A stretch of 64,000 nt of DNA, taken from contig CBDCTH010000012.1 of the NCBI GenBank assembly GCA_965222155.1, positions 1,792,001 through 1,856,000 of the forward strand, in the 5' to 3' direction. This document shows positions 9,247-52,800 of the stretch, piece by piece (position 1 is the stretch's first letter; every line of letters starts with the position of its first letter). A program made the position numbers and the translations under genes. The DNA is from Gammaproteobacteria bacterium. GTDB lineage: Bacteria > Pseudomonadota > Gammaproteobacteria > Eutrophobiales > Eutrophobiaceae. The notes below the pieces were generated by a model that worked only from the letters and a program-made list of their open reading frames with translations, was not told the origin of the DNA and searched no databases.

Positions 9247-9885
9247 TCAGGACTTGACCCCATTTTGACGGTATGCGGATATAACGGCGCCGGCGTCCTG
9301 CCGGATATCGGATAATGATTTTCCTTTCCGGTATATGGCAGAGCCTATTCCAAATCCGTTAATCCCCTTTTGTATATATTCGGGCATGTTTTCAATGTTA
9401 ATACCGCCTACTGCAAGCAAGCAGAACCGTGGGGGAATAACGGCTCTGATTGCTTTGACTGCAGCAGGCGAGACAACTTCAGCAGGGAACATTTTTATCG
9501 CATCGGCTCCTGCTCGCATGGCAGTCAATACTTCCGTGGGCGTGCATGCGCCGGGAATGGACGTCATGTTTAATTTTTTTGTTTCATGGATAACGTCAAC
9601 ATCTGTATTGGGTGAAACAATCAGCATCCCGCCCGCTTCCCGCACTGCCGATATGTCACTGACGTCCAAGACCGTGCCGGCGCCAATCAGTACGTCGTTC
9701 CGATAATGCTGCGCCAGGAGTTCGATTGATTCACACGGCCGCGGAGAATTCAAGGGAACCTCGATAATGCCTATCCCCTCTCCTGTAAGAACATCCGCCA
9801 CAGCGATGACTTCAGCGGGTGTAATACCACGTAATATGGCAATCAGGGGAAGCTCTTTCAGATAGTTATCCAGCATGATTCTCAT
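9247..9885 (-). CDS. dgoA: 2-dehydro-3-deoxy-6-phosphogalactonate aldolase
   Basis: PLIAILRG, IEVPLNSP, IGAGTV, VSPN, KMFPA and AVGG motifs; adjacent to dgoK. Confidence 0.88.
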   Translation of the reverse strand: MRIMLDNYLKELPLIAILRGITPAEVIAVADVLTGEGIGIIEVPLNSPRPCESIELLAQHYRNDVLIGAGTVLDVSDISAVREAGGMLIVSPNTDVDVIHETKKLNMTSIPGACTPTEVLTAMRAGADAIKMFPAEVVSPAAVKAIRAVIPPRFCLLAVGGINIENMPEYIQKGINGFGIGSAIYRKGKSLSDIRQDAGAVISAYRQNGVKS

Positions 9886-10825
9886 CGATAATCCGTCTGA
9901 TCCGGGCCGATGTAATCGCTATCTTCCACAAACCATTAACCGAAGCGCCATCCGACGAGATGGGTTCAACGCCGATATCGAATTCAGCAAAGGCCAGACC
10001 ATACTGGTGCAGCAGGACGCGGTTGCCAATTAACGTAATCTTGTCAATCTCCGGATAAAACGTTAATCCGGCGCTGATTTCAGCCCCGATCAATATGCCG
10101 GAAAGATAACTGGAAAAAGCGCCCTGGTCGGACTCACCCGATACCAGGCGGGACCTGACCGAAAAGATATGATGAGAGAGACCACCTGGTTGACGACTCA
10201 TCCTGATTCCTTCCTCAAATGCCGCTTTATTAAACTCGTCAATCCTGATAACCGACTGAATGGAACCGGTAGTCTTGAGCGCCGTATATAATTCACCCGT
10301 TAAAAACGTCGTAAAACCGTTAATCTGATCCCCACTGACCGAGACCCATTTACTGTGTGTGCCCGGTAGGCATATCACCGTATCAGCAAGCTGATATTTT
10401 GACTGCAAGCCGATTATCTGAGTCTCCTCGCCGCGGATGACATCCGAAAATGCAGATATACTGTTGGAGGTGATACCCGGTACGATAAAAACGGGATTGG
10501 CATGGACCTCGGGGATTTTCACCAGGCATTGACTCAGCTGCCTGACAGCCATCGGACATTTCAGGTATGTCGTCTCGACCCATCCTTGTCGGCTACCGAT
10601 CATACCGCACATGATGACCGGCAAACCTGAAGCAGAGTTAAGCCATTGGTCACATGATGCATACAGAAAGTTTGCAAAGCCGCCATCCTGTTGCCGGAAA
10701 ACGCCCCCGTTATTTTCTGTTTTTTCGATCACCGTGCCGCCTCTGTCAAGCAAATAGGCACGGAACTGACTTGAGCCCCAGTCCACTGCAATTAAACATC
10801 CCGCCTTCATCATTGCCTCTTCCAA
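9866..10825 (-). CDS. dgoK: 2-dehydro-3-deoxygalactonokinase
   Basis: IAVDWGSS, GMIGSRQGW, DVIRGEETQ, LPGTHSKW, TFLTGE and YLSGILIG motifs. Confidence 0.92.
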   Translation of the reverse strand: MEEAMMKAGCLIAVDWGSSQFRAYLLDRGGTVIEKTENNGGVFRQQDGGFANFLYASCDQWLNSASGLPVIMCGMIGSRQGWVETTYLKCPMAVRQLSQCLVKIPEVHANPVFIVPGITSNSISAFSDVIRGEETQIIGLQSKYQLADTVICLPGTHSKWVSVSGDQINGFTTFLTGELYTALKTTGSIQSVIRIDEFNKAAFEEGIRMSRQPGGLSHHIFSVRSRLVSGESDQGAFSSYLSGILIGAEISAGLTFYPEIDKITLIGNRVLLHQYGLAFAEFDIGVEPISSDGASVNGLWKIAITSARIRRIIDENHAG

Positions 10826-12579
10826 TACATCAATAGCTGCCGACCTGAAAATGCCGTAATGCCGAACAGCGCCGCTGCCGTGAGGTAATTACCGTAGATG
10901 AGCGAACCAATGAAAAACAAGGCGCCATACCCGCACAGACAGGCCATGAAAAACGCTAACAAGGCATCGGTCATATTATACCCGGCGCTTGTCAGCACTA
11001 TTTCCTCACCGGCGGCGCGGGCCTCCTCGATGACCCGGCGCCAGCCGGGGCCCCGGGGTTGTACCAGGCGGAAGAAACGGCGCAGTACCGCCGGATCGGT
11101 TTGCGGTGTCATCAACGTGACCAGCAGCCATCCGACCGTGGTGATGGCAACACCGACAACCAGTTTCTCCCAATGAGTCCAGCCGGGTAAATCCACCAGG
11201 TGAAAGCTGAAGGCCACGATGAAAGAAATAATCATGGCAGCGATCTCGCTGTAGGCATTGATGCGCCACCAGAACCAGCGCAACAAAAACAACAGACCAG
11301 TGCCGGCGCCGATAGACAATAGGATATGAAACGCCTGCATGGCGGTTTCCAGGAATAATGCCAGGACACAGGCAATGAGCATCAACACCGGGGTTACCAT
11401 ACGCCCGACCAGCACCAGTTGCCCCTCCGTCGCTTCGGGCCTGATGAAGCGCCGGTAAAAATCGTTGACAAAATAGGACGCCCCCCAGTTCAACTGGGTC
11501 GACATGGTGGACATATAAGCACAAATCAATGAGGCCATGACCAGTCCCAATAACCCGTGAGGCAGGTATGTCAACATCGCCGGATAGGCAAGATCATGCC
11601 CGATAACCTGCTCATCGACGTGGGGGAACCTTGATTGGATCGCGGCCAGGTCGGGAAACACGACCAATGAGGCCAAGGCAACCAGAATCCAGGGCCAGGG
11701 ACGCAAAGCATAGTGCACGAATTGAAATAACAGCACCGCGCCCATGGCATGATGTTCGTTTTTTGCCGCTAACATGCGCTGCGCGATGTAGCCACCGCCA
11801 CCGGGTTCCGAGCCTGGATACCATACGCTCCACCATTGCACGGCAACCGGAATGATAAAGACCGCGATGGCTGTTTCGGGCTCGGAAAAATCCGGAAAAA
11901 AAGACAATTTGTCCACTACGTTCGGGTGGCTGAGCAGGTTGTTCAACCCCCCCACTTCCGGTAAATTCACGGTGACCCAGGCCGCACATATGGAGCCGAC
12001 CATGGAGATCGTGAACAACACCAAATCTGTCAGTACCACGCCCAGAAATCCTCCCATGGCGCTGAAAACAGTCACCACGACAGCGGCGATGGCGAGAGTT
12101 TGTATCGGGGTCAAATCCAGTATCACCGCACCGATCTTGATTGCCGCCAATGTCACCAGGGCCATCACCATCACGTTGAAGAAAACACCCAGGTAAAGGG
12201 CGCGAAACGCCCGCACCGCGCTCGCGGCCTTACCGCTGTAACGAATTTCATAAAACTCGAGGTCCGTAAAAACACCGGACTGCCGCCACATCCTGGCATA
12301 AACAAAACACGTCAACATACCCGTAAGCAAAAACGCCCACCACACCCAGTTTCCCGACACGCCATCGTTCCTGACAATATCGGTAACGAGGTTGGGTGTA
12401 TCGGTGGAAAAAGTGGTAGCGACCATGGAAGTACCCAATAACCACCACGGCATATTTCGACCGGAGAGAAAAAACGAACTGCTGTCTTTACCTGCCCGCT
12501 TACTGACGCAGGCGCCAATGACGATTGCGGTAACGAAAAAGAAACCTATCAAACACCAGTCTATGAAGCTGAGTATCAT
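10810..12579 (-). CDS. Sodium:solute symporter (SSS)
   Basis: FFLSGRNMPWW, SMVATTF, YIAQRMLAAK; about 13-14 TM segments. Confidence 0.9.
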   Translation of the reverse strand: MILSFIDWCLIGFFFVTAIVIGACVSKRAGKDSSSFFLSGRNMPWWLLGTSMVATTFSTDTPNLVTDIVRNDGVSGNWVWWAFLLTGMLTCFVYARMWRQSGVFTDLEFYEIRYSGKAASAVRAFRALYLGVFFNVMVMALVTLAAIKIGAVILDLTPIQTLAIAAVVVTVFSAMGGFLGVVLTDLVLFTISMVGSICAAWVTVNLPEVGGLNNLLSHPNVVDKLSFFPDFSEPETAIAVFIIPVAVQWWSVWYPGSEPGGGGYIAQRMLAAKNEHHAMGAVLLFQFVHYALRPWPWILVALASLVVFPDLAAIQSRFPHVDEQVIGHDLAYPAMLTYLPHGLLGLVMASLICAYMSTMSTQLNWGASYFVNDFYRRFIRPEATEGQLVLVGRMVTPVLMLIACVLALFLETAMQAFHILLSIGAGTGLLFLLRWFWWRINAYSEIAAMIISFIVAFSFHLVDLPGWTHWEKLVVGVAITTVGWLLVTLMTPQTDPAVLRRFFRLVQPRGPGWRRVIEEARAAGEEIVLTSAGYNMTDALLAFFMACLCGYGALFFIGSLIYGNYLTAAALFGITAFSGRQLLMYWKRQ

Positions 12580-12594: not shown

Positions 12595-14037
12595 TTATGC
12601 AATAAACCGGCCGGGGCGTCTGCCGGTTTCTTCTCCGTTCTGCCAGGTACACTGGCCATTGACAAACACGTAATCTATCCCGGTTGCCGGTTCGCATGGA
12701 TTTTCATAGGTTGCATTATCACGAATTTTATCCGGGTCTATCACTACCAGGTCGGCAAACAGGTGGGGACGTATCGCGCCGCGGCTCGCTATCCTGAATT
12801 GTGATGCCGCCAAGCCCGTCATCTTATGAACAGCCGTCTCCAACGAGAACAGTTGCTCATCACGGGCATAATGCCCCAGCACCCGTGGAAACGTTCCCCA
12901 CAGTCGTGGATGGGGTTGGGGGTCGTTGGGCAAACCATCCGAACCGATCATGGTTGACGGATGCTTTAACACCCGGCGGACGTCATCTTCATGCATCTGA
13001 AAATAGCAGGCGCCCCCGGGCAATAAACGCTCCGCTGCCTCCTTCTGGCTACATTGCCAATCTTTGGCAACATCATGCAGGTAGCGCCCGCCCATTTCAG
13101 GGCGAGATTCAGACCAGGTGATGAGTATTTTTATCTTGCCATCCACCAGGGCGGGTTCCAACACACTCGAACCGGCAGTGTAGGGATAACAATCGATATT
13201 GACCGTCCGGGTCTGCCTGACTTCATCCAGCAATTTCAGCGTTTCTTTTGTTCCCCCCCAGTTTTGCAGACCGGCGCATTTATGGTGCGATATGATTAAG
13301 GGGGTCTGTCCCCGCTCAGCCGTGGTAAAGGCTTCCTGCATGGCCTCGATAACGTGATCATATTCATCGCGCAAATGCGCTGCATAGACTCCCTGTCGCT
13401 CGCCCGCGAGCCTGACCAGCGGCACTAATTCATCCACGTCTGCCGCCCTTCCCGGTGGATAATACACACCACTGCTGAGACCGGCAGCGCCGGCGTTGAA
13501 AGCCTCTTCCAGCAGTTTCAACATGGCATCAAGTTCAGCCGTGGAGGCTTTTTTGTTGACATCACTCATGGTGGCGAGCCGCAAGGTTGAATGCCCCACC
13601 AAAGCAACGATATTGACCGCGGGTTCTGCTTGTTCGACAGCCTCGACGTAACTTTGAAAATCAGCAAACTCGAATTCGATATGGCCGCCTAACAGATTCA
13701 GCGGCTCGACCAGCGCCGAAGCACGAAATAACGGGGCCAGGCTGATGCCACAGTTACCGACAATCACCGTCGTCACCCCCTGGCTGATTTTGGGCCGCAT
13801 GGCCGGTCTATCGATACACACGCGATCATCATGCGTATGCACGTCGATAAATCCCGGACAGATGATCTTGCCGCGGATATCCACCACCTGCTCCGCTTCG
13901 GCCTGACCGAGTCGACCCACACTCATGATCCGGTCCCCGCTGACGGCGACATCGGCGGCAAATCTCCCGGCGCCGGTACCGTCTATGACTTCACCACGGC
14001 GAAAAACCAGATCATATGTGGGTGCGCCATGCAGCAT
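12595..14037 (-). CDS. N-acyl-D-amino-acid deacylase family (D-aminoacylase)
   Basis: PGFIDVHTHDD, QGVTTVIVGNCG, HLRDE, SHHK, GSDG and PHPRLWGTFPRVLG motifs. Confidence 0.9.
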   Translation of the reverse strand: MLHGAPTYDLVFRRGEVIDGTGAGRFAADVAVSGDRIMSVGRLGQAEAEQVVDIRGKIICPGFIDVHTHDDRVCIDRPAMRPKISQGVTTVIVGNCGISLAPLFRASALVEPLNLLGGHIEFEFADFQSYVEAVEQAEPAVNIVALVGHSTLRLATMSDVNKKASTAELDAMLKLLEEAFNAGAAGLSSGVYYPPGRAADVDELVPLVRLAGERQGVYAAHLRDEYDHVIEAMQEAFTTAERGQTPLIISHHKCAGLQNWGGTKETLKLLDEVRQTRTVNIDCYPYTAGSSVLEPALVDGKIKILITWSESRPEMGGRYLHDVAKDWQCSQKEAAERLLPGGACYFQMHEDDVRRVLKHPSTMIGSDGLPNDPQPHPRLWGTFPRVLGHYARDEQLFSLETAVHKMTGLAASQFRIASRGAIRPHLFADLVVIDPDKIRDNATYENPCEPATGIDYVFVNGQCTWQNGEETGRRPGRFIA

Positions 14038-14052: not shown

Positions 14053-15348
14053 TCAGAAAAACGTCCGTATACCGTCGATGACGTTATAGTCGTCATCCAC
14101 CAGCCACAATAATTGCCATTTATCAAAAGTCGTACACGGATGGGAAATACCGAGGGCAACCATATCCCCGACGGCCAGGTCCGGCTCACCGGAAAAGCGC
14201 AGGTAGGCATGTTGATCATTCAGCGCAAATATTGCCATTTCGCTGTGTGCCACTTCAGGCATTTTCATCTGCCCCGGTCGGAACCATTTTTCCACCACCG
14301 GGAGATCAACGTCATAAGAAACATCCCGTTTACCGGCTGTAAGAATAGCTAAGCCGGGTTCAGGAACGGATTGAACGTAGGCCCATACTTCGAGCGCGGG
14401 CCGAAGCCGGTCGCTGACTTTATCCGCGCATCTGGCCCGGATATTTTGAAAATGGCGTTCGTAGAAAACCGAGTCATGGGTAAGATAACAACCACTGCGG
14501 ATAATCGCTTGTACGAATCCCTGTTTTACCTGGTTGAGTACCGGTACGACAATATCAAAATACGCCGAGCCGCCGGCGCTTAACAACACACGTCGGGGAT
14601 TGGCAAACAAGTCCAGGGATTGACAACGCCGGTACGTAGCCACAACTTGTGCGAGCAGGTCGCCGATACGACGCTCATCTTCCTGTGGTTCGCTGCCGTC
14701 GATGATACCCTCATAGCACGCCACGCCATGAAGCTCGATTGATGGTTGTGCTGCGATCGCGCCGGCTACTCCGAGTGCATCGACCAGGCTGCGGCAGCCC
14801 GTGCGTCCCCCCTGGATACCGATTTCCAACAGAACTCTTATATGGACCGCTGCGCCCATCTCCGGCAGCAGGTCTTGTAAGCGCTCGGCGCCAGCAATTG
14901 AATCGACGAGACAGTAGAATTCGAACGCGTCATCCCGGGCTAATTCTGTGGCAACGTATCGGATATCATCCAGGCCCACCAGCTGGTTGGCCATGAGTAC
15001 CCGTTGTACGCCGAAACGCCGGCAGACTTGCAACTGCTGAACCGTCGCAACCGTCATTCCCCAAGCGCCGTATGTCAGTTGCAAATCAAACAACTGCGGC
15101 GCCATGGTCGTCTTTCCATGGGGCGCTATCAGGGCATTTTCTGCACTCAGAAAATCCCGCATCCAAGCGGCATTATGTTCAAGTGCACTCTGTTTTATAA
15201 CGGCGCCGGGTAGCGGGATTTGCTCTTCCAACAGGTTCCAACGTTGCCTGGCAACGTCCGCCAACAATATATTTGCGCCGTCATCGGGCAGGCCTTTCGT
15301 GCCCGCTTGCAGCGGCGTCGCCAGTAACGCGTCCAATACCAGCGCCAC
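14053..15348 (-). CDS. Fold-type III PLP amino-acid deaminase/dehydratase (DSD1 / D-serine deaminase-like)
   Basis: APHGKTTMAPQL PLP-lysine motif, GGRTG, RSGCY, GKRD, NDQH and SHPCTTFDKW motifs. Confidence 0.88.
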   Translation of the reverse strand: MALVLDALLATPLQAGTKGLPDDGANILLADVARQRWNLLEEQIPLPGAVIKQSALEHNAAWMRDFLSAENALIAPHGKTTMAPQLFDLQLTYGAWGMTVATVQQLQVCRRFGVQRVLMANQLVGLDDIRYVATELARDDAFEFYCLVDSIAGAERLQDLLPEMGAAVHIRVLLEIGIQGGRTGCRSLVDALGVAGAIAAQPSIELHGVACYEGIIDGSEPQEDERRIGDLLAQVVATYRRCQSLDLFANPRRVLLSAGGSAYFDIVVPVLNQVKQGFVQAIIRSGCYLTHDSVFYERHFQNIRARCADKVSDRLRPALEVWAYVQSVPEPGLAILTAGKRDVSYDVDLPVVEKWFRPGQMKMPEVAHSEMAIFALNDQHAYLRFSGEPDLAVGDMVALGISHPCTTFDKWQLLWLVDDDYNVIDGIRTFF

Positions 15349-16136
15349 TAAAACGCCTCAAGCGTCAGTTCACCGGCCATGACGGCATTGCCGGCGGTTA
15401 AACCGGCGTCCACCGGTATCACCGCGCCGGTTATGCAACGGGCATCACTGGAAGCCAGGAAGCCACAAAGCGCGGCCACGTCCTGCGGTTCGGCAAAATA
15501 ACCTAAGGGATACCATTTTCTCAGCTGTTCAAAAACTTCCGGGTTTTTTGCAGTGCGTGCATCCCAGGCTGGTGTCTTAATCGTAGCCAGGTTCAACAGG
15601 TTGGCCCGGATCCCTTTGCGCCCATATTCAACTGCAAGCGATTTGGTATAGCTGATCAAACCGGCCTTGGCCGCGCTATAGGCAGGATGTCCCAGGGTAG
15701 AGAGTGAGTTGACTGAACCGATGTTGATGATCACCCCCCCAGCATGAGTCAACATCGCTTCCTTGACGATCTCCACACAGTGATACGCACCGGTTAAATT
15801 GAGATCGATGTCCTGCCGCCAGGATTGCGGAGTGACCTTGGCTAAAGCCGTCGCCGCGGCTCCGCCGGCATTGTTTACCAGGATCCCGACATGACCGGTT
15901 TTATCGACCACGGGTTGCACCGCAGCCCGCAGGGCGGACAAATCCGTCACGTCAGCTGCAACGGGCAAACAGTTCTCGCCCAATGAAACAGTCAGTCTTT
16001 GTAACTTTTCCCGATTTCTTCCAACGGCCAGTACGGTGGCGCCGCGCTCACAAAAATACCGGCACAGACCTTCACCAACGCCGCCAGCGGCGCCGGTGAC
16101 CAGGACAATTTTTTTTTCAAAGTGATACCCGTTCAT
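15348..16136 (-). CDS. Short-chain dehydrogenase/reductase
   Basis: TGAAGGVG, NNAG and YSAAK motifs. Confidence 0.9.
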   Translation of the reverse strand: MNGYHFEKKIVLVTGAAGGVGEGLCRYFCERGATVLAVGRNREKLQRLTVSLGENCLPVAADVTDLSALRAAVQPVVDKTGHVGILVNNAGGAAATALAKVTPQSWRQDIDLNLTGAYHCVEIVKEAMLTHAGGVIINIGSVNSLSTLGHPAYSAAKAGLISYTKSLAVEYGRKGIRANLLNLATIKTPAWDARTAKNPEVFEQLRKWYPLGYFAEPQDVAALCGFLASSDARCITGAVIPVDAGLTAGNAVMAGELTLEAF

Positions 16137-16193: not shown

Positions 16194-16214
16194 GTTAACC
16201 CGGATATTGCACCA
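16194..16214. repeat. 21-bp repeat GTTAACCCGGATATTGCACCA (inverted copy at 18503-18523)
   Basis: Exact reverse-complement match read directly from the sequence. Confidence 0.8.
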
Positions 16215-17403
16215 GTTCGTTTGGCGGGACCCCATTGCCTTGATGACTAATCGCTTGCCCCAGCCACTGCAAATTGACGGATGGCAGCATGTCATAGTGA
16301 TAAAAGGCAATATCCCGGATACCCAGTGTCTGAACACCGGCAACGGTATCCACCACCTGCTCCCGACTTTGCATATCAGGCCAACCCGGTCGCAGAATGG
16401 CGCCAAGCCGGTCAGTCCCGCCGGTTTTCCGGACGACGTATTTGCCCTCCGATATTGCCGCCTCTACCGACGGCTGATAGAGAGGCAACTCCAGTCCCTC
16501 CGCCGTATCGTACAATGCCGGCAGATCATGCCCCTCCAGGACACTGGTGGTATGCGACCGTTGGGTCGTCGAAATGATTTTCATCTTTACGGAGGAACGA
16601 ATCGCTGCCCGTATCTCCTTGACGAGCAAGGTGACGGTAGCGCAGCGCCAGCGCAGAAAGGCATTAAGCTCATCGTCTCCGAATATACCGTTTTCCGGCC
16701 AACCCGTGACTGTTTCACTGTGGGGTAAGTCGCTGTTCAGATAACCATCAATTGCCTCTCTCACACGGCGCTGTAAGGACGCGCCGTCTATACCGGTCTT
16801 AGCGGCGCCGGCAATACAGTGATCACAGAAGCATAATCCCAACCAGGCATCCAGCCGGGGGTCAGGCCGAACCTGGGCAAATTCATGATGATAGCCATGG
16901 CTGTAAGCCAGATAACCCGGGGTTTCGAGCAATAACGTATCAATGGGATAATGCCCGGCAAGGTCCTGACATAGGGTCAACGCATACTGACGGACCTCAG
17001 GATGGGCAGGGCATAAACTATAAACATAGCCATCGCCAAAGGCATTTCTAACGGTAATCTCGGGATATAGCATCCCCAGCCGGGTGTTATGCAGCAACAC
17101 GGTCCAGGCATTGACGACCAGGTCTTCGCGTTCCGCCAACAGTGCCAGAACGTCATCTTGTTCAAGCAGCCTGCTGGTCAACGGCTTGACCTTGCCGTAG
17201 CTTAAACGCGGTTTAAAGTAGACAACCCCATCCTCCGGGAAATAGACCCGATGACGATTGCTGCGCGGATGAATGAACTTGCCGGTGTGATAACTCGCCG
17301 CAAGGTTGATGCCCTGCAGTCCGGAAGAGAGAATTTCATCGACCCTTTCATCTGATTTCTCTGCTGATAAATTCCAAGGATAGGCATAGATGGAATAACT
17401 CAT
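16195..17403 (-). CDS. Conserved hypothetical protein, probable TIM-barrel (glycoside-hydrolase-like) with Cys motifs
   Basis: YAYPW, LAASYH, LCPAHPEVRQY and LCFCDHC motifs; sits within the catabolic operon. Confidence 0.6.
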   Translation of the reverse strand: MSYSIYAYPWNLSAEKSDERVDEILSSGLQGINLAASYHTGKFIHPRSNRHRVYFPEDGVVYFKPRLSYGKVKPLTSRLLEQDDVLALLAEREDLVVNAWTVLLHNTRLGMLYPEITVRNAFGDGYVYSLCPAHPEVRQYALTLCQDLAGHYPIDTLLLETPGYLAYSHGYHHEFAQVRPDPRLDAWLGLCFCDHCIAGAAKTGIDGASLQRRVREAIDGYLNSDLPHSETVTGWPENGIFGDDELNAFLRWRCATVTLLVKEIRAAIRSSVKMKIISTTQRSHTTSVLEGHDLPALYDTAEGLELPLYQPSVEAAISEGKYVVRKTGGTDRLGAILRPGWPDMQSREQVVDTVAGVQTLGIRDIAFYHYDMLPSVNLQWLGQAISHQGNGVPPNELVQYPG

Positions 17404-17427: not shown

Positions 17428-17814
17428 TCATTCGGGCTTGTAGGCTATGACGTCAATCTCGACCTTGGCATCGACCATAATCTGCGATCGAACACAGGAC
17501 CGGGCCGGCGGCGCCTCCCCAAAGTATTCCGCATAGACGCGATTAAACGCCTGGAAGTCCCGCGTATCATCCAGCCACACATTGACCTTGACGACATCGG
17601 CCAACGTGCAGCCGGCTTTGTTGAGTATTGCAATGATATTTTCCATGGTTTTATGAGCCTGCGGAACAATACCACCGGCAATGATCTCACCCTGGTCATC
17701 CATCGCGACCTGCCCGGAGACAAAGATAAACCCCCCTGCCTGCGTAGCCTGGCAGAATGGTAAACTCTGCCCGCCGCTGCCTGTTTTCATCCCACCCGTT
17801 CGCTTAATGCTCAC
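17428..17814 (-). CDS. RidA/YjgF family protein
   Basis: VSGQV, DVVKVNVWL, FNRVY and PPARS...VEID motifs; AGGAGG RBS. Confidence 0.92.
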   Translation of the reverse strand: MSIKRTGGMKTGSGGQSLPFCQATQAGGFIFVSGQVAMDDQGEIIAGGIVPQAHKTMENIIAILNKAGCTLADVVKVNVWLDDTRDFQAFNRVYAEYFGEAPPARSCVRSQIMVDAKVEIDVIAYKPE

Positions 17815-17931: not shown

Positions 17932-17985
17932 AGTAATTATACTACATAAAAATAAAATACACGAGTATTTTGCAATTTTATTACA
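17932..17985 (-). promoter_or_regulatory. Two HexR-like operators upstream of the catabolic operon
   Basis: Minus strand TGTAGTATAATTACT (17932-17946, contains TATAAT) and TGTAATAAAATTGCA (17971-17985). Confidence 0.7.
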
Positions 17986-18320: not shown

Positions 18321-18502
18321 GCACCCTCTGCCGCACATCGTACTTCGCCTGCAGTGATTTGACCACCGGGATGAGGCTGTGACCTTACGACGTCAAGTGT
18401 AGAGAGTAAAATTCTTAAAGTATACGGTTGCCCTGGCTTTGGGTTGACAAAACCTTCGTAACCCATTGACAGCATTTTACTTTTCACTTAGGATAAGCGA
18501 TT

Positions 18503-22368: not shown

Positions 22369-22372
22369 TAAG

Positions 22373-23599: not shown

Positions 23600-23629
23600 T
23601 ACGTATCCGTCCTCAGTGGTTAAAAAACA

Positions 23630-44174: not shown

Positions 44175-44462
44175 GATTAAGTCTCCTGAAATATTCACAG
44201 GTTACGCGCAGCGTAGTAATTGGGAGAGGGGAGTAATTAGCCATTTGCAGTCGAAGCTGTTACATGGGCCGGGAGTCCTTACTCTTAGCATTGCCCTGTC
44301 CGATACAGACTGTTGGAAACAGGCAGACAAAAGCGGCTGTTATCAGCGACGGTAGCAACTGTAATTGGGACTTCATATCAACAATACTACCCTCGTGGCT
44401 ATCAAGCGCTAAAGAAAACAGAACTATCCATTTGCTTTTGCAAGGCTTAAACAGACTATGCG

Positions 44463-44650
44463 TTGCTGATAAATGCACTTCGACTGAATAAATAATATTA
44501 CAAAAAATTAAAAAATCATCATATATATGACTTTAAATTACATTTTAACCTATTTTGTAATTTATGTGCATAAAAAGATGCCTGAACAAGACCTGAATAG
44601 AAGAATTTAAAGCTTATTTTGATGCTTAATGTAGATTGTTGACTGGATAT
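44463..44650 (-). promoter_or_regulatory. Promoter block of the giant gene, paralog of 19194-19389
   Basis: Minus strand TGCACA-N17-TAAAAT overlapping an operator-like TGTAATTTAAAGTCA (44528-44542). Confidence 0.7.
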
Positions 44651-44734
44651 CTATGATCTTGCCTTGGACCGCAGGTAGCAATCAGCCAAAATCAACCAAA
44701 ATTCGGGGGGTTGGTATTAAACTTGGGTTAACTA

Positions 44735-47700
44735 TTATTGGCACATATTCGGAGTCAGCTGTAGAGAGATTTCAGCAAGTTGGGCTTGCGCCCGATTGAT
44801 GAGGTCGCCGGCCCGACCGGCCATCAATGGGCCACTGGAAAAAGTATCCACTGTTCTTTCTAATCGACTCAGCCACCTGCCGGGGAGATTGTTCCGACCG
44901 CATCCTGACAGACTGTTACGTAATACCTTTACTTTCTCAAAGTCTTCTATCCCTTCGCGCAGCAACTCCGAGCGAATGCTGGGCACGACTGTCATGTCCC
45001 TGTCGTTACTGCTCCGGTATACCAGTGAGAAATCACCCGCGCTATAGGCGCCCTCACGCAAGTCCAGCGGATCAGATGACCTCCAGTTATCAAAGGCCCA
45101 GCGCAAATAACCATCCTGGCGTCTTTGCAGGGCATGCCAGGGTAGTGCTGCCATGTCCAGTGGATCTGCATTGGCGGCAACGAAGCTGTTGGGGCGGGGT
45201 TGCACACAGCTTGTGTAGAAAGTGCTTATCTGGTCCGGGTAGTTAGTCCGGTTATCTGCATAGGTCCAGCCCAGGTACGCTGTGGGAGTACAGGTTTCTG
45301 ACCCCATACAGCGATATATGTCATAGCCTGTAGTAGCATTCCCAGTCCAACTCAGCTGGATTGCCGTGGCGCTTGCTGCCAGTGTTGTCAACTCAGTGGG
45401 TATTGTGCCGGTATTGCCTGGTTGCGCTGTGTCTGCTGCAATACGGTCATCTCGTTGGACTGGCTGTCGCAGACGGTCCCATTACACGCCTGCAACGCAG
45501 AGGGATAGGCCGATGCCACAGAGTAGTTGAAATCCCACCCTGACCACGAATCCCACACTTGGTGATTAACCATATCAGCAGCCATCGCCGTTATCTGGTG
45601 AGATCGGTTCCCGCAGCCGCTCCTGTTACATGCTTGCACCGTATAACGATAGGTCATATTCGCAGCCACATCAGAGTCGCTATAGGTGATACCGGATGCC
45701 ACCCAGTCCAACCAGGCAGGGATACAGGGACCATTCTCGTCCACACAGCGGTAGATGTTATAACCAGTCAGAGCGCTGCTGCCGGTTGCCGACGGCGCCG
45801 TCCAGTTCAACGTAATCCCCGTAGCGTTCATCGCAGTTAAGCCAGTCGGTTCCCCCGGAACGGTCGGTGTCTGTGCCATCACCGTCACGGGGGGTGACGG
45901 AGCACTGCAGACATCATTGCACGCGTCCACTGCATAGCGGTAGGTCTCGCCCGTTATCAACCCGCTGTCAACATAAGTGGCGCCGACCAGCACCATCGAA
46001 CCGGAGCTATCATAAAGCTTGCTGAGAACATGGTCATCAGGACCGTCATGCCCGTAACCAATATAAGCCAATCCGATTTTCCAGTTTTCATCAATGGCTC
46101 GAACCAGATTGATCACTGCCTCCGTATCGTCCTCAGAAGATTCGTCCATGTAGAGAACCGTTTTATCGAGCCATTCTTTTTCCAGCAGGTGAGCTCTGAA
46201 GTCAATTAAAAAATGTCTCCAGCGTGTATTCCAGGCAGATGACCCTACATCTGCTCGAAATGTTTTCTTGCTTTGAGTGGTCTCGTCCCAATAGGGGATG
46301 TCACCCCAGTTCCAGCCCACCGGAGAGAAAGCGCTGATCTGTTGATCAAGACCCCAGGCCGCAAGACGACTCACGTAGGTATCAAAAACAGAATAGTCGT
46401 ATTCCCGACTGCCGTTTCTTTTCAGCGTCCAACGGATCATGGACGGTGCGCCCAAGGCACCCTCTTTAATGTAAGTAGTCACGGTTCGCTGACCCAGTTC
46501 GGCCAGATAACGGTAGGTGGGTTCCAGCAGCGCATAATGTTCTTCCGACCAGAGTTCTATCCGACCTCCCGGATTAGCATCGTTGTATCGGTCCAGCACG
46601 GAGACGGGAAACTGCCACAAATCCAGGTGGAACTGCCGCTCTGCTGTTCCGGGCATAGTCCAGGTAGTAACCTGAAGCGAAACTTGAAGCGTTGTCCGGG
46701 CAACTGGTGTTGCCCCTGATACTGCATTGATAGTCACTGTAGCTGAGTATTCTCCAGCGGGAGTATCAGATGGGATATCCACTGACATCCACACCAATTC
46801 AGGCCAGGATAGCGGCAATGTCTGGTCCGGTCCGGAAAACAGCGCATCGGACAGGTATACAGTTGTATTCTCTTGCTCATAATTCTTATTGCAGCTACGT
46901 ACCTCGGTATGCCCGGCGACAAAACGGGGATAGCGGAACGATACCGCACTGGCTGGAATGACGTCATTCGTCACGCTTGTAAGATCAGTGGAAACCAGAG
47001 ATATTCGACTATTTGACGGGACGTGTTTGACCAGGATATGTTGCTGGATACGTTCGCCTTTCCAGGCGATGCTGTTCCATGTGGTTATACCAGATAGTTC
47101 AGGTAAAACATCTCTTCGGAACCATTGAGACCCGGATTCAAATGAAGCCTCAAGTTCGCCCAGGCAGGAACATATAGTCCCAGGTACAGCCGAAAGGTCA
47201 CTACATCCGGCAGATGCGCCCTTGAGTGCCTCATTCACCGCGCGCACCGAAAGCGAATACTGAACACCATCAATCAAACCGGTAACCGTATACGACTTTG
47301 TTGTCGTACCGGTGGGTATAATACTGATCCAGCTTCCATTGTCAGTCCCAGTCCTGATTAGAAGCTCCCATCCCGTGACAGGGCCTGATGGGGGCGTCCA
47401 ACTCAACGTGATTTGCCCATCAGCCGGTGTGGCTATCAGATTCGTCGGTGCATCTGGCGCGGACGCAATGGGCGGAGGTATCTCCCGTGCCACCGCCGTC
47501 ACTGCTTCAGACCGCTCTCCATTTGCATAATCCGGTGGATACGACGCTGCCACTGCATACAGATAGGTGGCGCCTTCAGTCACCCCGCCGGTCTCTCCAC
47601 CGGTGTCGGTGTAACTGGTTGGCGCAGGGGGGGCATCACCTTTATTCGCAACCCAGGCATGCCATTCCAACTCACAGGCCACCGCACCGGACTGCACACT

Positions 47701-48237
47701 GCAACGATACACGTTGTAACCCAATATGCCGTTTGCCGGCACCGTCCAAGTCAGACTAATCGAGGTCGTACTGGTGGCCACGATCGTCAGACCGGTCGGC
47801 GCCGCCGATAACGGCTTCTCCGGCTGCAGGGGCGACTCACCCTGCGCCACCGCCTCCACCTCATTCGACCAGTTACCTTCTTCAGCGCGGTAAGCCGCCA
47901 CCACATAACGGTGAGTCGTGCCTGAAATGAAGGGCTTGTCTGCCGTGCCGCTGTCCGTGTAGGTCGTGCCGCTCGTTACCCAGGCCAGCCAGTCGCTGTC
48001 GGCGTCGATGACACAACCCACCCCCTCACAGCGATACACGTTATAGGCTTCTATCGCACCGTACCCATCATCCGGCGGCGCCCTCCAACTCAGTACAATC
48101 CGGCCATCAGCGGATGCGGCAGTCAAATTCGTCGGCGTACCGGGAGCTACAGCCAGCGCCAAGGGAGAAACAACAAAAAACAATACACCATACAGTAACA
48201 GAGCAAAGCGGTTTGTTGCCAAGTTAGACTCTTCCAT
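44735..48237 (-). CDS. FN3-GH123-like protein, catalytic domain interrupted by FN3 modules; frameshift near 45390 (possible pseudogene)
   Basis: Signal peptide, 3 FN3, FHLDLWQ...LYMDE. The C-terminal TFYTSC...GYLRWAFDNW...SIRSELLREGIEDFEK lies in ORF 44735-45391. Confidence 0.75.
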
Positions 48238-48416: not shown

Positions 48417-48458
48417 TGTAATAAGATTACATTTTAGGCCATAATCAAAGCAAGTCAA
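48417..48458 (-). promoter_or_regulatory. Sigma70 promoter with an abutting HexR-like operator
   Basis: Minus strand TTGACT-N16-TAAAAT running directly into TGTAATCTTATTACA (48417-48431). Confidence 0.75.
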
Positions 48459-48474: not shown

Positions 48475-50649
48475 CTATCGACACATATCGGGGGTTACTG
48501 ATTGCGACATTTCATGGAGTAACGCACGAGCTTGGGAAATAAGTTCAACTGACTGCCCGGCCATCAACTGCCCGGTTGAAAAAGTGTTGACTGTCTCTTG
48601 CAACCTGGTCAGCAAATCTTCTTTTTCACACCGTAACATCACATTACGTAGTACTTGAACTTTTTCATAATCCTCAATCCCATCACGCAGCAATTCCGAC
48701 CTGGCGCTGGGGATTACCGTCATGTCTTTGTCGTTGCTATTTCGATAAACGAATGAGAAATCACCCGCGGTAAATGAACCATCACGCAAGTCCAAGGGAT
48801 TGTGGGATTTCCAGTTGTCGAAGGCCCAGCGTAAATAGCCGTCATGTTCCCTGACCATGGCATACCAGGGCATTGCTGCCATATCCGCCGGATTGGCGTC
48901 AGCGGCAACGTAATTGTTCGGGCGCCTGAGCGAACAACTCGTGTAAAAAGTAGTTACCTGGTTTGCGTAAGTCTGTACATCTGTTTCACTTTCGTAATAC
49001 CCGGACACGTCGTAAAGACTGGCGATGACGCTCTCACCTGGGGCATGGCCGTAGGCCAGGCCGATTTTCCAATCCTTGTCATTGAAGCGAATCAGGCCGA
49101 TAACCGCTTCCATTTCTTCCTTGGGCACCTCGTCCATGTACAGGACGGTTTTCTCAAACCAGCCCTTTTCAAGCAAATGTTCCTTGAAACCGGTGAGAAA
49201 GTGATTCCATAACGCGTTATATTCTTTAGATCCTATGCTAGTCTTGAATATTTTCATTTTTCCACTGGCCTCATCCCAGAAGGGGAGTTCGTCCTTATTC
49301 CATCCAACCGGGGAAAAGGCGCTGATCTGATCATCAATGCCCCACTCGGCAAGACGCTCGACATGTGCATCAAAAACCGAATAGTCGTATTGCCAACGTT
49401 TTCCGTTATCCAGTGCAATCCAACGGATCATTGACGGTGCGGCGAAGGCTCCCTCCTTGATATAAGTAGTAACGGTTCGCTGGCCCAATTCAGCCAGGTA
49501 GCGATAGGTGGGTTCCAAAAGAGCGTAATGTTCAGCTGACCAGGTCTTTATCCGTCTTCCCGGGTTGGCGTCGTTGTATCGGTCCAGTACGGATACCGGA
49601 AATTGCCATAAATCCAGGTGAAACTGCCGTTCGGAGGCTGGTGGTATGCGCCAGGGGGTCACCTCAAATTCAACATGGAGGGATACCTGCTCGCCTGAAG
49701 TCGAACTGACGGTAACACTGCCAACGTAGTCGCCGGGTTGGGCGTCACCAGGGATATCTATCGACATCCAAATTATCGCGGGATAAGAACGCGGCCGGTT
49801 TCGAGGCTGTTGCGGAAACAACGCATCTGACAAGTAGACAGCTTCGTCCCGCTCCGGGTAACCGTCGCAATCACGCGCCTCGATATCGCCGATAACGAAT
49901 TGCGGGTATCGAAACGATACCGCGCTGGCCGGGATAATATTTGCTCGACTTTTGAAATCACCGACAACCACGGAAACTTTTTTGCGTGACAGGACACCCG
50001 TCACCAGTATTTGTTTCTGTATGCGTTCACCTCTCCAGACAACACTTTTCCACGCTGATACCCCTGAGAGCTTCGGTATATTGCTTTTTTGAAACCATTG
50101 GAATTCGGATTCAAAAGATGCCGCAAATGTATCGGCAGTGACCTTAGCGCCTTTGTTGTCAGCCTGTTCGGTAGTGTCTGTCTCATTAGCGGAACTTTGC
50201 GCCTCTTCATCTACGACTTCAATGGTGAAACGCAGGGAATCCGCATCGCCCGTGGTCCAATTCTCATCATCGTCATGGACCCATAAATGGAAGGTTCTCT
50301 TCTTTAAAGCGTATTTTGGCGTACCGCTCAATACGCGTGTGAATCGATCGAGGCTCAACCCTGGCGGTAATTTAGCCGGATCAAAGCTGTAATCGCTGAG
50401 TTCGTTATTGTTGATATCAGGATCAATGTTCCCACCTGTGGCTGCGGGAAGGGTTATCACGTCGATGGGTATCCCCTTAATAAAGACAAGGTTGCCGATT
50501 TTGGCGGTGCCAGGAAAGGTCGGTGCAGTGTCAGTTTGTGCGCCGGCTTGTCCCATCCACAAGCTTGCTATAAGCGTCAACATGATCAGACTCCCCACAA
50601 TTCGACGACTTTGCAGTGGGGCAGCTGCTTTACATATTGATATCCACAT
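48475..50649 (-). CDS. Secreted Ig-like domain + GH123-like (DUF4091) beta-N-acetylgalactosaminidase
   Basis: Signal peptide (AGA-Q); putative Ig domain (LPAATGG, LPPGLSLD..TRVLSGTP); FHLDLWQ, YMDE, GYLRWA and RSELLRDGIEDYEK motifs. Start uncertain. Confidence 0.8.
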   Translation of the reverse strand: MWISICKAAAPLQSRRIVGSLIMLTLIASLWMGQAGAQTDTAPTFPGTAKIGNLVFIKGIPIDVITLPAATGGNIDPDINNNELSDYSFDPAKLPPGLSLDRFTRVLSGTPKYALKKRTFHLWVHDDDENWTTGDADSLRFTIEVVDEEAQSSANETDTTEQADNKGAKVTADTFAASFESEFQWFQKSNIPKLSGVSAWKSVVWRGERIQKQILVTGVLSRKKVSVVVGDFKSRANIIPASAVSFRYPQFVIGDIEARDCDGYPERDEAVYLSDALFPQQPRNRPRSYPAIIWMSIDIPGDAQPGDYVGSVTVSSTSGEQVSLHVEFEVTPWRIPPASERQFHLDLWQFPVSVLDRYNDANPGRRIKTWSAEHYALLEPTYRYLAELGQRTVTTYIKEGAFAAPSMIRWIALDNGKRWQYDYSVFDAHVERLAEWGIDDQISAFSPVGWNKDELPFWDEASGKMKIFKTSIGSKEYNALWNHFLTGFKEHLLEKGWFEKTVLYMDEVPKEEMEAVIGLIRFNDKDWKIGLAYGHAPGESVIASLYDVSGYYESETDVQTYANQVTTFYTSCSLRRPNNYVAADANPADMAAMPWYAMVREHDGYLRWAFDNWKSHNPLDLRDGSFTAGDFSFVYRNSNDKDMTVIPSARSELLRDGIEDYEKVQVLRNVMLRCEKEDLLTRLQETVNTFSTGQLMAGQSVELISQARALLHEMSQSVTPDMCR

Positions 50650-50693
50650 CGCTTGTCGGAAAGACAGAATGATCAACAAACTGCTGAGAGCGT

Positions 50694-52322
50694 TCAATTT
50701 GCCATATACGTGAAATCGCTGGGCCACTCTCCGTATACGCGGTAGTTAATTCCCATCGCTGCATAGCGCTGACATTGAATTTCAATGCGTTTTCTGAAAT
50801 CGTCCAGGTCTTTTTCCCCCTTGGGACTCCAGGCAATCTCGGCCAGGGCAGACAGTCTTGGAAAGATCATGTATTCATAATAATCATTTGTCTTGATAAA
50901 CTCCGTCCATAGGTTGGCTTGCAGCCCGAGGACCTGTGCCTCTTGTTGCGGCGTGTACGTATCGGGGATCGGCTCCCACTGGTAAATAAGCTCAACCGAA
51001 TTGGGGCCGTTATCATTCCCTTCCCAGGGAGCGCCCGGCTCTCCCACGTAATTGGGGTAGTCGAAATAGAGGTAATTGGTGGGCGAGATAATGACACGAT
51101 GACCCTTTTTGATGGCAAGGTCGAGCGCCTCAGGCCGTAGGTGCAGCCACCACTGCACAACTGCCGCAGGGTTCACGTCAAAGTTAACTATTTCATCCCA
51201 GCCGATGGGTGTATAACCTTGGCCCACAATGAAGTCAGCCACGAACCGGTCGAAGTGCCCCTCCACCTCGTGCAGGTCGGTGTAGCCGTGTTCCTGCATG
51301 AAGGAATCTATTTCCGGTAATTTGGCCCAGTGATGGTTTCGAACTTCGTCACCGCCGAAATGAAGGTAGCCGGAGGGGAACAACTCCATGACTTCGGTCA
51401 GTATGTTCCTGACAAATTCATAGGTCTGCTTATTCCCGGGATTGAAGGTTTTGTCACCATCGAAGAATTCCGGATAGGCCCTGGCAGCCGCCTTGGAATG
51501 GCCCGGCATGTCAATTTCAGGTACAACCATGATGTGGCGCTGCCCGGCATACTCGATAATTTCACGGATTTCCTCTTTCGAGAAATACAGACGAGCAGGA
51601 CCTTCCGGGTTGGACATATCCCCGACAGCACCCACGTTGATGAGTTTTGGATACTGTTCTATCTCAAGGCGCCAACCCGGATCGTCCGTCAGGTGGAGGT
51701 GGAGTACGTTGAGTTTATGGATGGACATCGCATCAATGGTCTTTTTTAACTGCTCTTTGGAGAAGAAATGACGAGAGACATCAATCATCAGGCCTCTCCA
51801 TGAAAACCTCGGACGGTCGGTTATGTCAACGCGTGGGATTGACAGTTCATCAGGTCTGAGGAGATCGGGTTCCTGCGCGTAAATGCTTGGAGGGAACATC
51901 TGCAGTAGCGTTTGAACTCCATAGAACAGCCCTGCCGGGTCGGACGCCGAAATGTCGATTTGTTTACCGGTCACGCGTAGATGATAACCCTCCTTGTCTT
52001 GATCAGACATTTGCGGCGATGAAGCAAACAGACGCAAATTAATTGTGACCGAATCACTATCAGCCTTGCGTTGACGTATGGGCAACTCGAAACCGGCGGC
52101 TTTTCGCAGCCGCTCGGCAAGGTAGGATGCCGACGTGTGTGCGCGGTCATCAGCAACGATTGATGTTCGAGCATCTATCGAAAACGATCCCGAGGATTTT
52201 TTCAGTGAGAATGGCTTTGGAATAATCGTGAATTCAGGGTCTTCACCCTGTGCTAATAACGGTGTGCTGGAAAGGATGAACACGAAGGTAACTTTAATAA
52301 TAGGCAGAAGATAGCTTTTCAT
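50694..52322 (-). CDS. GH20 beta-N-acetylhexosaminidase, secreted
   Basis: D.PRFSWRGLMIDVSRHF, HLHLTDD.GWR, PEIDMPGH, HFGGDE, YLYFDY, LWTE and FPR motifs. Confidence 0.95.
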   Translation of the reverse strand: MKSYLLPIIKVTFVFILSSTPLLAQGEDPEFTIIPKPFSLKKSSGSFSIDARTSIVADDRAHTSASYLAERLRKAAGFELPIRQRKADSDSVTINLRLFASSPQMSDQDKEGYHLRVTGKQIDISASDPAGLFYGVQTLLQMFPPSIYAQEPDLLRPDELSIPRVDITDRPRFSWRGLMIDVSRHFFSKEQLKKTIDAMSIHKLNVLHLHLTDDPGWRLEIEQYPKLINVGAVGDMSNPEGPARLYFSKEEIREIIEYAGQRHIMVVPEIDMPGHSKAAARAYPEFFDGDKTFNPGNKQTYEFVRNILTEVMELFPSGYLHFGGDEVRNHHWAKLPEIDSFMQEHGYTDLHEVEGHFDRFVADFIVGQGYTPIGWDEIVNFDVNPAAVVQWWLHLRPEALDLAIKKGHRVIISPTNYLYFDYPNYVGEPGAPWEGNDNGPNSVELIYQWEPIPDTYTPQQEAQVLGLQANLWTEFIKTNDYYEYMIFPRLSALAEIAWSPKGEKDLDDFRKRIEIQCQRYAAMGINYRVYGEWPSDFTYMAN

Positions 52323-52326
52323 AATT

Positions 52327-52800
52327 GGCGGCTTCAAGTCATAATCGCTACAATGTGGTATCGTTCAGCTTCAGTCAGCTGTGTGTATCTCTTGGCTCTC
52401 AGAAATCACTCTTGAGTTGGTTTCAGTCAACCTGTGACATAGTCCAGCTGACTGTCTTCTTCGGGTGTTGCACTTATTATCTGAATTTGCGAAGTAATAT
52501 TTATTCATAAAATAAACGTAATAAGATTACATTCTAGGACATCTTCAACAGGTGTCAAGTATCCTGTAGGGTTTCCAACACGGCGATTGCCCAGGGCATG
52601 GGACGGTACCGCACGACCATCTGGCGCGAGTTACAACGCAATACCGATCGTTGACGGCAGGCTGCCGTCAACGAGATGAACCATCGGCCACGCAAAAGCT
52701 TGGGGTTTAAGACCCCGTGGGAAGTATTTTCTGAACCGGTTCAGAAAAATACCAGTACCAAACCACCACTTGTGTGTTGCACTTATGACTTGAAGCTGCC
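52327..52800 (+). mobile_element. IS30-family internally deleted remnant / MITE-like element
   Basis: 26-bp imperfect inverted repeats at 52327-52352 and 52775-52800; a third end-like copy at ~52465-52490; transposase bits AIAQGMGRYRTTIWRELQRN and NHRPRKSLGFKTPWEVF. Confidence 0.8.
52517..52558 (-). promoter_or_regulatory. Sigma70 promoter with an abutting HexR-like operator (GH20 operon)
   Basis: Minus strand TTGACA-N16-TAGAAT running directly into TGTAATCTTATTACG. Confidence 0.75.

Follow-up and report, generated by a model that had tools for sequence, protein, structure and literature searches.

A candidate beta-N-acetylgalactosamine locus in a gammaproteobacterium, with a predicted oxidative amino-sugar operon and a two-barrel receptor gene

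Described systems closest to the locus

Animal glycans such as mucins, chondroitin and glycolipids contain N-acetylgalactosamine (GalNAc) as a major sugar, and the bacterial routes for its catabolism are, to our knowledge, phosphorylative. Here we describe a neighbourhood of about 43 kb in the genome of an uncultured, marine-type gammaproteobacterium (G000; 4.55 Mb, completeness 100), lying in a stretch of 64,000 nucleotides (hereafter the window) and comprising a leftward operon of eight genes, a gene for an RpiR regulator, a type II secretion system (T2SS), one GH20 and two GH123 genes, and a giant gene that encodes fibronectin type III-like (fn3-like) modules, an outer-membrane barrel and a TonB-dependent receptor (TBDR). 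This neighbourhood is probably a TBDR-based locus for beta-linked GalNAc, similar in make-up to the carbohydrate utilization (CUT) loci of Xanthomonas and in function to the polysaccharide utilization loci (PULs) of Bacteroidota, and linked to an amino-sugar route that is oxidative and non-phosphorylative.

The ong cluster of Pseudoalteromonas prydzensis ACAM 620 serves a route from C1-oxidised N-acetylglucosamine (GlcNAc1A) through GlcN1A and 2-keto-3-deoxygluconate (KDG) to KDG-6-P, with a KDG kinase, and its members are a GH20 enzyme (OngA), a deacetylase of D-aminoacylase fold (OngB), a D-amino-acid-deaminase-like protein (OngC), a RidA protein (OngD), a sodium:solute symporter (SSS; OngIT), an RpiR repressor (OngR) and TBDRs (PMC9537276); the structure of OngB is treated in a separate paper (PMC12017989). 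The same families are clustered in the window (for OngC the likeness is one of annotation, not of compared sequences), and the same logic of deacetylation, deamination to a 2-keto-3-deoxy acid and phosphorylation can be read from them. The window, however, has DgoK and DgoA, of the galacto series, instead of KdgK; it adds a short-chain dehydrogenase/reductase (SDR), a protein of an unnamed family (hereafter X) and the GH123 enzymes, in a genome in which no lytic polysaccharide monooxygenase of the LPMO_10 family was found; its TBDR is fused to an fn3-autotransporter module; and its deacetylase is no closer to the P. prydzensis protein (PpOngB) than to D-acylases.

The CUT loci of Xanthomonas, described by Blanvillain et al. 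in 2007 and in later work, reportedly bring together a TBDR, an inner-membrane transporter, glycosidases and a regulator, with enzymes secreted by the Xps T2SS. The window also combines a TBDR of the "Xanth-Caul" type (TIGR01782) with glycosidases, a transporter and a repressor, and has a T2SS with Xps-type members (XpsM equivalog), but it differs in having this T2SS inside the locus, in its oxidative catabolism and in its two-barrel receptor. The PULs of Bacteroidota are characterized by SusC/SusD with surface glycan-binding proteins. The window likewise groups genes for surface-type modules, a TonB-dependent importer, glycosidases and a regulator, but its presumed surface module forms one covalent chain with the importer, and no SusD family occurs among the Pfam matches of the 45 open reading frames (ORFs) scanned, so that the SusC/SusD pair of a PUL is lacking. 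Finally, Solan et al. (2021; PMC8346858) predicted a class of outer-membrane proteins with two barrels, and the receptor of the window likewise has two predicted barrels in one chain, in a lineage-specific fusion whose barrels may share one process. In the main text of that paper, to which the comparison is confined, "TonB" does not occur and "autotransporter" is used only for trimeric autotransporters; in the pair of the window, an autotransporter-like barrel comes first and a complete TBDR, no longer with a signal peptide of its own, comes second.

Hydrolases, catabolic operon and proposed route

The gene content was called by Pfam and NCBIfam scans of the long ORFs in the window (Table 1), and the scans bear out the gene list of the first-pass annotation, which had named a T2SS, hexosaminidases, an SSS, a catabolic operon and an RpiR gene. 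They also agree with its count of three signal-peptide hexosaminidases, two GH123 and one GH20, all three of which have a signal-peptide-like N-terminus (judged, here as elsewhere, by eye only). By its profile and structure matches, the GH20 protein is an ordinary beta-N-acetylhexosaminidase. The assignment of the other two to GH123 holds, and both are predicted to be beta-N-acetylgalactosaminidases: their PF13320 matches are well above the cut-off, PF22680 (the GH123 N-terminal domain) is found in both, and GH123a aligns over about 530 residues with a Bacteroides GH123 enzyme (PDB 5l7r, E 6.5e-62) and also matches 5fqe, deposited as a beta-N-acetylgalactosaminidase (E 2.7e-38). The catalytic pair of GH123 is an adjacent Asp-Glu, and this pair is kept, with "ymDEvp" of GH123a aligned to "amDErp" of 5l7r and "YMDESS" in GH123b. 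GH123b has N-terminal fn3 modules and, within its catalytic domain (45391-46059; Pfam positions 190-223), further fn3-like modules; the same intra-catalytic insertion is present, within single frames, in the relatives G010 and G006. Much larger frames with this domain also exist in G010, namely an open frame of 18,507 aa with 10 GH123 catalytic-domain matches (G010:C3:1336148-1365274) and another of 4,156 aa with two (G010:C3:1685927-1690309).

The catabolic operon runs from 17814 to 9247 with its eight genes on the minus strand, separated by gaps of -20 to +58 nt, in the order RidA, X, SDR, pyridoxal phosphate (PLP) enzyme, amidohydrolase, SSS transporter, DgoK, DgoA; it thus ends in DgoK/DgoA, as previously annotated, and mirrors the published ong route. 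The amidohydrolase matches PpOngB (PDB 9kb1) with E 9.6e-133 (447 bits), and the PLP enzyme matches PDB 3gwq, deposited as "D-serine deaminase", with E 3e-104. The SDR and X both lack a signal peptide and neither has a counterpart in ong. For X, 824 relatives were found at E<=1e-10, none with a functional name; a PDB sequence search gave no match and an Atlas search gave unnamed clusters only. The predicted structure (pLDDT 85) has as its closest folds the hexosamine-binding C-terminal domain of PgaB and Cwp19 (TMq ~0.6). Because aldonolactones, as is generally known, fit the active sites of glycosidases, X is proposed to be the lactone opener, and this cytoplasmic barrel is most likely a lactonase; a cytoplasmic glycosidase is proposed as the alternative. 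An inverted repeat of 29 nt (16194-16222 / 18495-18523, 90% complementary) brackets X, RidA and the promoter region of the operon.

From these gene identities and their arrangement, which are observed, we infer every step of the following route. GH20, GH123a and GH123b would be exported through Sec, perhaps released by the single T2SS, and would cut terminal beta-GalNAc or N-acetylhexosamine (HexNAc) off glycans; the products would cross the outer membrane via the TonB-dependent barrel, here fused behind an fn3 stalk and an autotransporter-like barrel, and the SSS symporter would bring the sugar into the cytoplasm. There, the SDR, a proposed GalNAc 1-dehydrogenase, would oxidise GalNAc at C1, X would most likely open the lactone, and the OngB-like amidohydrolase, as a proposed N-acetyl-galactosaminate deacetylase, would take off the acetate. 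The OngC-like PLP enzyme, a proposed galactosaminate deaminating dehydratase, would then act with RidA in the deamination and dehydration of galactosaminate to 2-keto-3-deoxy-galactonate; since the exit enzymes are DgoK and DgoA, the keto-deoxy acid should be the galacto epimer, and these two enzymes would convert it to pyruvate and glyceraldehyde-3-phosphate. The RpiR/HexR-like repressor would sit on TGTAAT-N3-ATTACA sites abutting -10 boxes and would probably leave when its SIS domain binds a phosphosugar; 2-keto-3-deoxy-6-phosphogalactonate (KDPGal), the only phosphosugar of the route, is suggested as its effector by this domain. In the whole genome, neither a NagA above its cut-off nor a PF01182 protein was found (SIS-type AgaS/NagB-II lay outside this search), which speaks against the usual phosphorylative route.

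The cassette of RidA, X, SDR, PLP enzyme and deacetylase is found in Alpha-, Beta- and Gammaproteobacteria. Relatives of X in species-representative genomes gave 492 loci, 80 of which were kept and surveyed by tblastn with the other genes of the window (E<=1e-10, at least half of the query, within 9 kb; some contigs are short, and three of the loci belong to the same-genus relatives G019, G002 and G006). The SDR directly follows X in 73 of the 80; RidA and the amidohydrolase occur in 30 loci each, the PLP enzyme in 21 and RpiR in 17, and among the exit and uptake genes a DgoK-like match in 12, DgoA in three, and the SSS and GH20 in one each. Alteromonadaceae bacterium XY-R5 has the entire eight-gene operon, with GH88 directly upstream and an SSS orthologue (67% identical) at the same operon position, and in Undibacterium baiyunense the order is LysR-DgoK-RidA-X-SDR-MFS-PLP enzyme-amidohydrolase, while other Undibacterium-type loci have weaker DgoK-like matches (24-30% identity) beside the cassette. 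That the genes form a module, as first supposed, agrees with their co-occurrence elsewhere: G010 has the cassette, GH20, DgoKA, two GH123 genes, a fused TBDR and RpiR inside 20 kb, a compact block, and a Sphingomonadaceae metagenome-assembled genome has GH20, a TBDR, RpiR, the cassette and DgoK/DgoA grouped. No description of this cassette or pathway was found in the literature searched, nor did a search of it for N-acetylhexosamine dehydrogenase and glucosaminate ammonia-lyase return anything relevant. Single-protein scans of genome contigs yielded little (2 loci; 1 unrelated locus).

Table 1. Coordinates of the features discussed, as positions of the window.
Feature	Position	Strand	Evidence or remark
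DgoA, 2-dehydro-3-deoxy-6-phosphogalactonate aldolase	9247-9885	-	NF006600 261 bits vs cut-off 207; PF01081
DgoK, 2-keto-3-deoxy-galactonokinase	9866-10825	-	PF05035 E 2.8e-86, full length
Sodium:solute symporter (SSS), OngIT family	10810-12579	-	PF00474
D-aminoacylase-fold deacetylase, OngB-like	12595-14037	-	PDB sequence matches
PLP enzyme, D-Ser-dehydratase / D-Thr-aldolase fold, annotation class as OngC	14053-15348	-	PF14031, PF01168
SDR oxidoreductase	15348-16136	-	PF13561
Protein X, (beta/alpha)8 TIM barrel, unnamed family	16195-17403	-	GHL10 26.4 bits, below cut-off
RidA enamine/imine deaminase, OngD family	17428-17814	-	TIGR00004 108.9 bits vs cut-off 106.25
Palindrome TGCAATTTTATTACA, upstream of the RidA operon	17971-17985		1 mismatch
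RpiR/HexR-like regulator (HTH_6 + SIS)	19652-20632	+	PF01418, PF01380; likely start ATG 19713
gspE, F, G, H, I, J, K, L, M, GspC/XpsN-like gene, gspD	20677-31106	+	Pfam/NCBIfam
TonB-dependent receptor part of the giant gene (P0001 residues 1001-1861)	31330-33915	-	TIGR01782 507 bits vs cut-off 310
Helix and autotransporter-like outer-membrane barrel	34036-35508	-	PF03797 43.6 bits vs cut-off 26
Signal peptide and ~26 fn3-like modules	35509-44174	-	at least 4 frames; in-frame ATGs 44174, 44108
C26 run (G26 on + strand)	44123-44148	-	between in-frame ATGs 44174 and 44108
Giant-gene promoter-like site TGCACA-17-TAAAAT, then half-site AATGTAAT	44528-44570	-	3 mismatches to palindrome
GH123b	44735-48237 (frames 45388-48237 + 44735-45391)	-	PF13320 113 + 69 bits
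Promoter TTGACT-16-TAAAAT (48458-48431) abutting perfect palindrome TGTAATAAGATTACA at 48417	48417-48458	-	
GH123a	48475-50727	-	PF13320 189 bits; likely start near 50649
GH20 beta-N-acetylhexosaminidase	50694-52337	-	PF00728 363 bits; PDB 7cbn E 1.4e-92
Promoter TTGACA-16-TAGAAT (52558-52531) abutting palindrome CGTAATAAGATTACA at 52517	52517-52558	-	

Secretion system, regulator and giant receptor gene

The core genes of the T2SS (E to M, C and D) are all present, with matches to T2SSE, T2SSF, T2SSG, GspH, T2SSK, the XpsM equivalog and TIGR02517 GspD; GspC is weak (GspC_delta 39.6 bits vs a cut-off of 150), GspL is recognised via a PilN domain only, and no prepilin peptidase (GspO/PilD) lies inside the cluster, the extent of this search. 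By tblastn with all gsp proteins, this is the sole T2SS set of the genome, and weaker matches at 325-330 kb (29-40% identical to GspD, E and F) are taken to be type IV pilus genes. In a search of five relatives, secretin orthologues were found in G019 (81% identity), G018 (63%) and, as two copies, G003 (66% and 61%); in G002 and G010 there are partial matches of ~31-32% only and no ortholog. With a single T2SS in the genome and a G010 cluster without secretin, the T2SS cannot count as an additional system private to the locus, and in G003 a T2SS stands beside a galactan-type locus. The claim of the first-pass annotation that the locus carries its own dedicated T2SS has thus to be given up; its wider proposal of a PUL-like GalNAc module keeps its footing in the locus content and the ong-like operon, without the T2SS part.

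These same data lend weight to a reading in which the T2SS is a general secretion machine whose position is meaningless and the "system" is a mosaic of rearrangements, for which we would put the chances only slightly short of even. It is favoured by the single T2SS of the genome and the lack of a secretin ortholog for the G010 cluster, by the absence of a palindrome at the rpiR-T2SS promoter, and by signs of past rearrangement in the window (REARRANGEMENT). Among the latter, a direct repeat (19194-19389 / 44463-44650, 167/187 identical) carries the promoter-like site of the giant gene, and one low-depth contig of sequencing run X3 passes from 44650 into the sequence of 19390-19419; because of this join, the giant gene and rpiR may be divergent neighbours in the strain of X3. 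Relics of the GH20 C-terminus (53613-53708, 72% over 32 aa, inverted) and of the RpiR C-terminus (54953-55066, 95% identical over 38 aa) flank a gene for an N6/N4 DNA methylase (53833-54873), and between the operon and rpiR (18545-19011) there are a small antitoxin-like ORF and a ParE-family toxin (PF05016, E 4.9e-17). Against a meaningless position stand the gspK and gspJ fragments, the only gsp remains beside the full GalNAc cluster of G010, the T2SS of G003 next to another fused-TBDR glycan locus, the gspD of G019 at ~2.7 kb from dgoA/dgoK, and the gap of 44 nt between the end of rpiR and gspE in the window, in which no terminator-like site is found. Adjacency of T2SS genes to glycan loci therefore recurs (in G000 and G003, as relics in G010, and near dgoKA in G019), and this repetition is notable.

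The top NCBIfam match of the regulator is HexR, below the cut-off (154.8 vs 296), and its gene is single-copy in the genome apart from the 38-aa relic. Among the genomes examined, the gene for this RpiR is confined to the GH123-bearing G000, G010 and G006 and so moves together with the GH123 cluster. Of five relatives searched, four (G002, G018, G019 and G003) gave no match to it, and the idea that it is the global HexR of the cell was dropped on this ground. The half-sites and spacing of the operators (TGTAAT-N3-ATTACA, at most one mismatch allowed) are identical to those of the HexR regulon, whose published motif TGTAATTAAATTACA is quoted in PMC11906056; the regulator itself, in contrast to HexR, falls below the HexR cut-off, is missing from those four relatives and is seemingly local to the cluster.

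The same operator had been claimed to precede every leftward unit, which is the case for three of the four, the giant gene having a half-site only. The two promoters at TGTAATAAGATTACA and CGTAATAAGATTACA rank first among the sigma-70-like sites of the stretch from 43.9 to 53 kb. Within the window, AATGTAAT occurs seven times vs 1.85 expected (1 of 100 shuffles reaches 7), and three of the 10 palindromes found genome-wide with at most one mismatch are in promoter regions of the window. Elsewhere, TGTAATTAAACTACA lies between rpiR and ridA in G006, and three Asticcacaulis loci have a common TGTAATTTTGCTACA just before rpiR; these loci are kin and count as one event. An earlier operator candidate upstream of RidA (ATTAC-N4-GTAAT at 17980) was replaced by TGCAATTTTATTACA at 17971. 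Palindromes like TGTAAT-N3-ATTAC were also seen in another part of the chromosome, at G000:C12:438635, 431577, 444882 and 456429, within 25 kb.

The giant gene (~44.2 to 31.3 kb, minus strand) encodes a signal-peptide-like start, an fn3-like array that includes seven repeats of 345 nt, up to 100% identical, a helix, an autotransporter-like barrel and a TBDR. Classical autotransporter barrels have 12 strands; here, the model gives a 25-residue helix followed by ~19 strands over ~390 residues (mean pLDDT 63), and its fold matches in the PDB are TBDRs, LptD and the beta domains of BrkA and EspP (TMt 0.56-0.60 to the latter two). The signal-peptide-like start, the fn3 passenger, PF03797 and, in the model, the linker helix followed by the barrel are as in a classical autotransporter; the barrel, however, is not C-terminal, and the fused proteins continue into the TBDR. 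No stop separates the two. The TBDR part covers positions 2-868 of the 868 of TIGR01782, contains a Plug domain and, judged by eye, a TonB-box-like stretch (EIEEIRVIG), and is preceded by a vestigial RRTARILAQA in place of a full signal peptide of its own.

This architecture agrees with the adhesin-TBDR of the first-pass annotation, save that in the present assembly it is not one open frame, and on comparison of sequences it is real, because intact fused orthologues exist and share a junction with it. The seven fused proteins inspected all have one junction, made of a short linker, a vestigial RRxxRI[LIM]AQA and the TonB-box region, while relatives of the barrel that are not fused end in ...W L x G E L R F, with an aromatic C-terminus. 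Unbroken fused proteins elsewhere are 1411-3212 aa long (P0002, P0004-P0008; P0008 = 1698 aa), single frames with fn3 and Plug reach 2186 aa in G003 and 3613 aa in G005, and the TBDR part of G000 is 81% identical to that of G010. In G003 (C1:520000-553999) and G005 (C1:684000-721999), the fusions are found among genes for GH53, GH2, GH16(+GH53), SSS and an IlvD/Edd-type dehydratase, and in G003 at a few kb from gspK, gspF and gspD. A literature search for autotransporter-TonB fusions gave nothing relevant among the matches listed. The family of autotransporter-like barrels is much expanded genus-wide, its open frames reaching 21,139 aa (G009).

That the locus is decaying in this genome, with the giant receptor gene and GH123b as pseudogenes, appears to us rather unlikely, although it accounts directly for at least four frame breaks in 31330-44201 and one in GH123b. 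The stop-to-stop frames follow each other in series (43584-44201, 43214-43606, 37130-43213, 36972-37232 and 31330-36954), with breaks that come from one surplus base near 43597, from several shifts together with an in-frame stop near 43214, and from differences of -14, +1, +3 and +5 nt within otherwise identical repeats at 36.9-37.2 kb. The assembly was checked against the contigs of runs X1, X2 and X3 and the raw reads of X4, over a stretch that takes in the breaks near 43.2 and 43.6 kb and the one in GH123b. At the 43.2-kb break no indel difference is listed among the run contigs, as decay would have it, but at 43595-43597 one base fewer is seen in the contigs of all three contig-kept runs and in six of ten X4 reads (the pieces being short and repeat-collapsed), and the contigs of X1 and X2 are 7 bases longer after 45405, a difference borne by all of the depth at that point, which by arithmetic would join the two frames of GH123b. 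The intact fused orthologues (1698-3212 aa) and the remaining ~20 genes, which are intact, also argue against decay.

The public-run contigs all end at 44108-44159, around the C26 tract; runs of at least 10 G or C number 23 in the genome, many of them at starts of long frames, and seven have a common conserved flank. Upstream of the giant gene, at ~44680-44730, depth rises to 774 vs 111-162 alongside, and reads and contigs diverge into other sequence on both sides; it has the look of a short high-copy repeat, perhaps a miniature inverted-repeat transposable element.

Weighing of the substrate and pathway assignment

Several observations weigh against an oxidative GalNAc locus as outlined above. 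The amidohydrolase scores higher against the D-acylases 9g5m (1.6e-155, 522 bits) and 1m7j (1.5e-146, 492 bits) than against PpOngB, the best solved relative of the SDR is an uncharacterised SDR (5tt0), and the predicted fold of X is of glycosidase type, unlike known lactonases. The cassette also occurs where neither GH123 nor this RpiR is found (G002, G018 and G019), so it is not bound to GH123; in G010, where the two do occur together, GH123a is itself broken. The giant gene lies in at least four frames in this assembly and the sequencing runs contradict just one of the breaks, the genome-wide palindrome count of 10 is not above that of shuffles (mean 6.65), and the literature searched holds nothing on catabolism of GalNAc1A or galactosaminate.

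An ordinary ong cluster, acting on C1-oxidised chitin oligosaccharides (GlcNAc1A) and not on GalNAc, would explain the shared GH20, OngB-like, OngC-like, RidA, SSS, RpiR and TBDR families, and it is nevertheless improbable: DgoK/DgoA stand in place of the KDG kinase, two GH123 genes are present, the additional SDR and X suggest uptake of an unoxidised sugar, and the whole genome, of completeness 100, gives no LPMO_10 (PF03067) match, which speaks against an oxidised-chitin source. Still less probable is a reading in which N-acetyl-D-amino acids or D-serine are the substrates of the amidohydrolase, PLP enzyme and RidA and the sugar genes are neighbours by accident. The best solved relatives are indeed D-acylases and a "D-serine deaminase" chain, and RidA suits amino-acid deamination; but the three genes share their tight operon with those for the SDR, the glycosidase-fold barrel, DgoK and DgoA, the combination with DgoK recurs in three proteobacterial classes, and in ong an amino-sugar acid is the substrate of these families (PMC9537276).

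A broader reading, advanced tentatively and with less confidence than the GalNAc locus itself, joins all these elements into an undescribed, widespread oxidative pathway for free GalNAc, with X as lactonase, and genus-specific single-chain receptors for capture and import. The cassette with DgoK/DgoA would constitute the pathway, with X as a glycosidase fold turned lactonase, and the fn3 stalk, autotransporter barrel and TonB receptor would form a covalent analogue of SusC plus surface glycan-binding proteins; such receptors would lie beside the T2SS, with swappable enzyme sets (for GalNAc here and for galactan in G003 and G005) and with the C-tract in the leader as an on/off switch. The most novel pieces would be the front end of SDR and X with its DgoK/DgoA exit, and the fn3-autotransporter-TBDR fusion.

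A conserved oxidative GalNAc route, if true, would close a gap in how pathways are predicted in many Alpha-, Beta- and Gammaproteobacteria and would give a function to the unnamed X family, with its 492 loci; for the catabolic part, counterparts in cultured organisms exist (XY-R5, Undibacterium, Niveispirillum fermenti and Asticcacaulis). The fused receptor, a rare kind of protein, would offer a naturally occurring pair of outer-membrane barrels whose functional context is defined, making it possible to test how the beta-barrel assembly machinery (BAM) inserts two barrels from one chain and whether a tethered surface array aids glycan capture. The cluster is flanked by unrelated loci, with hydantoinase/oxoprolinase genes on the left and amidohydrolases, a TBDR and a POT transporter on the right.

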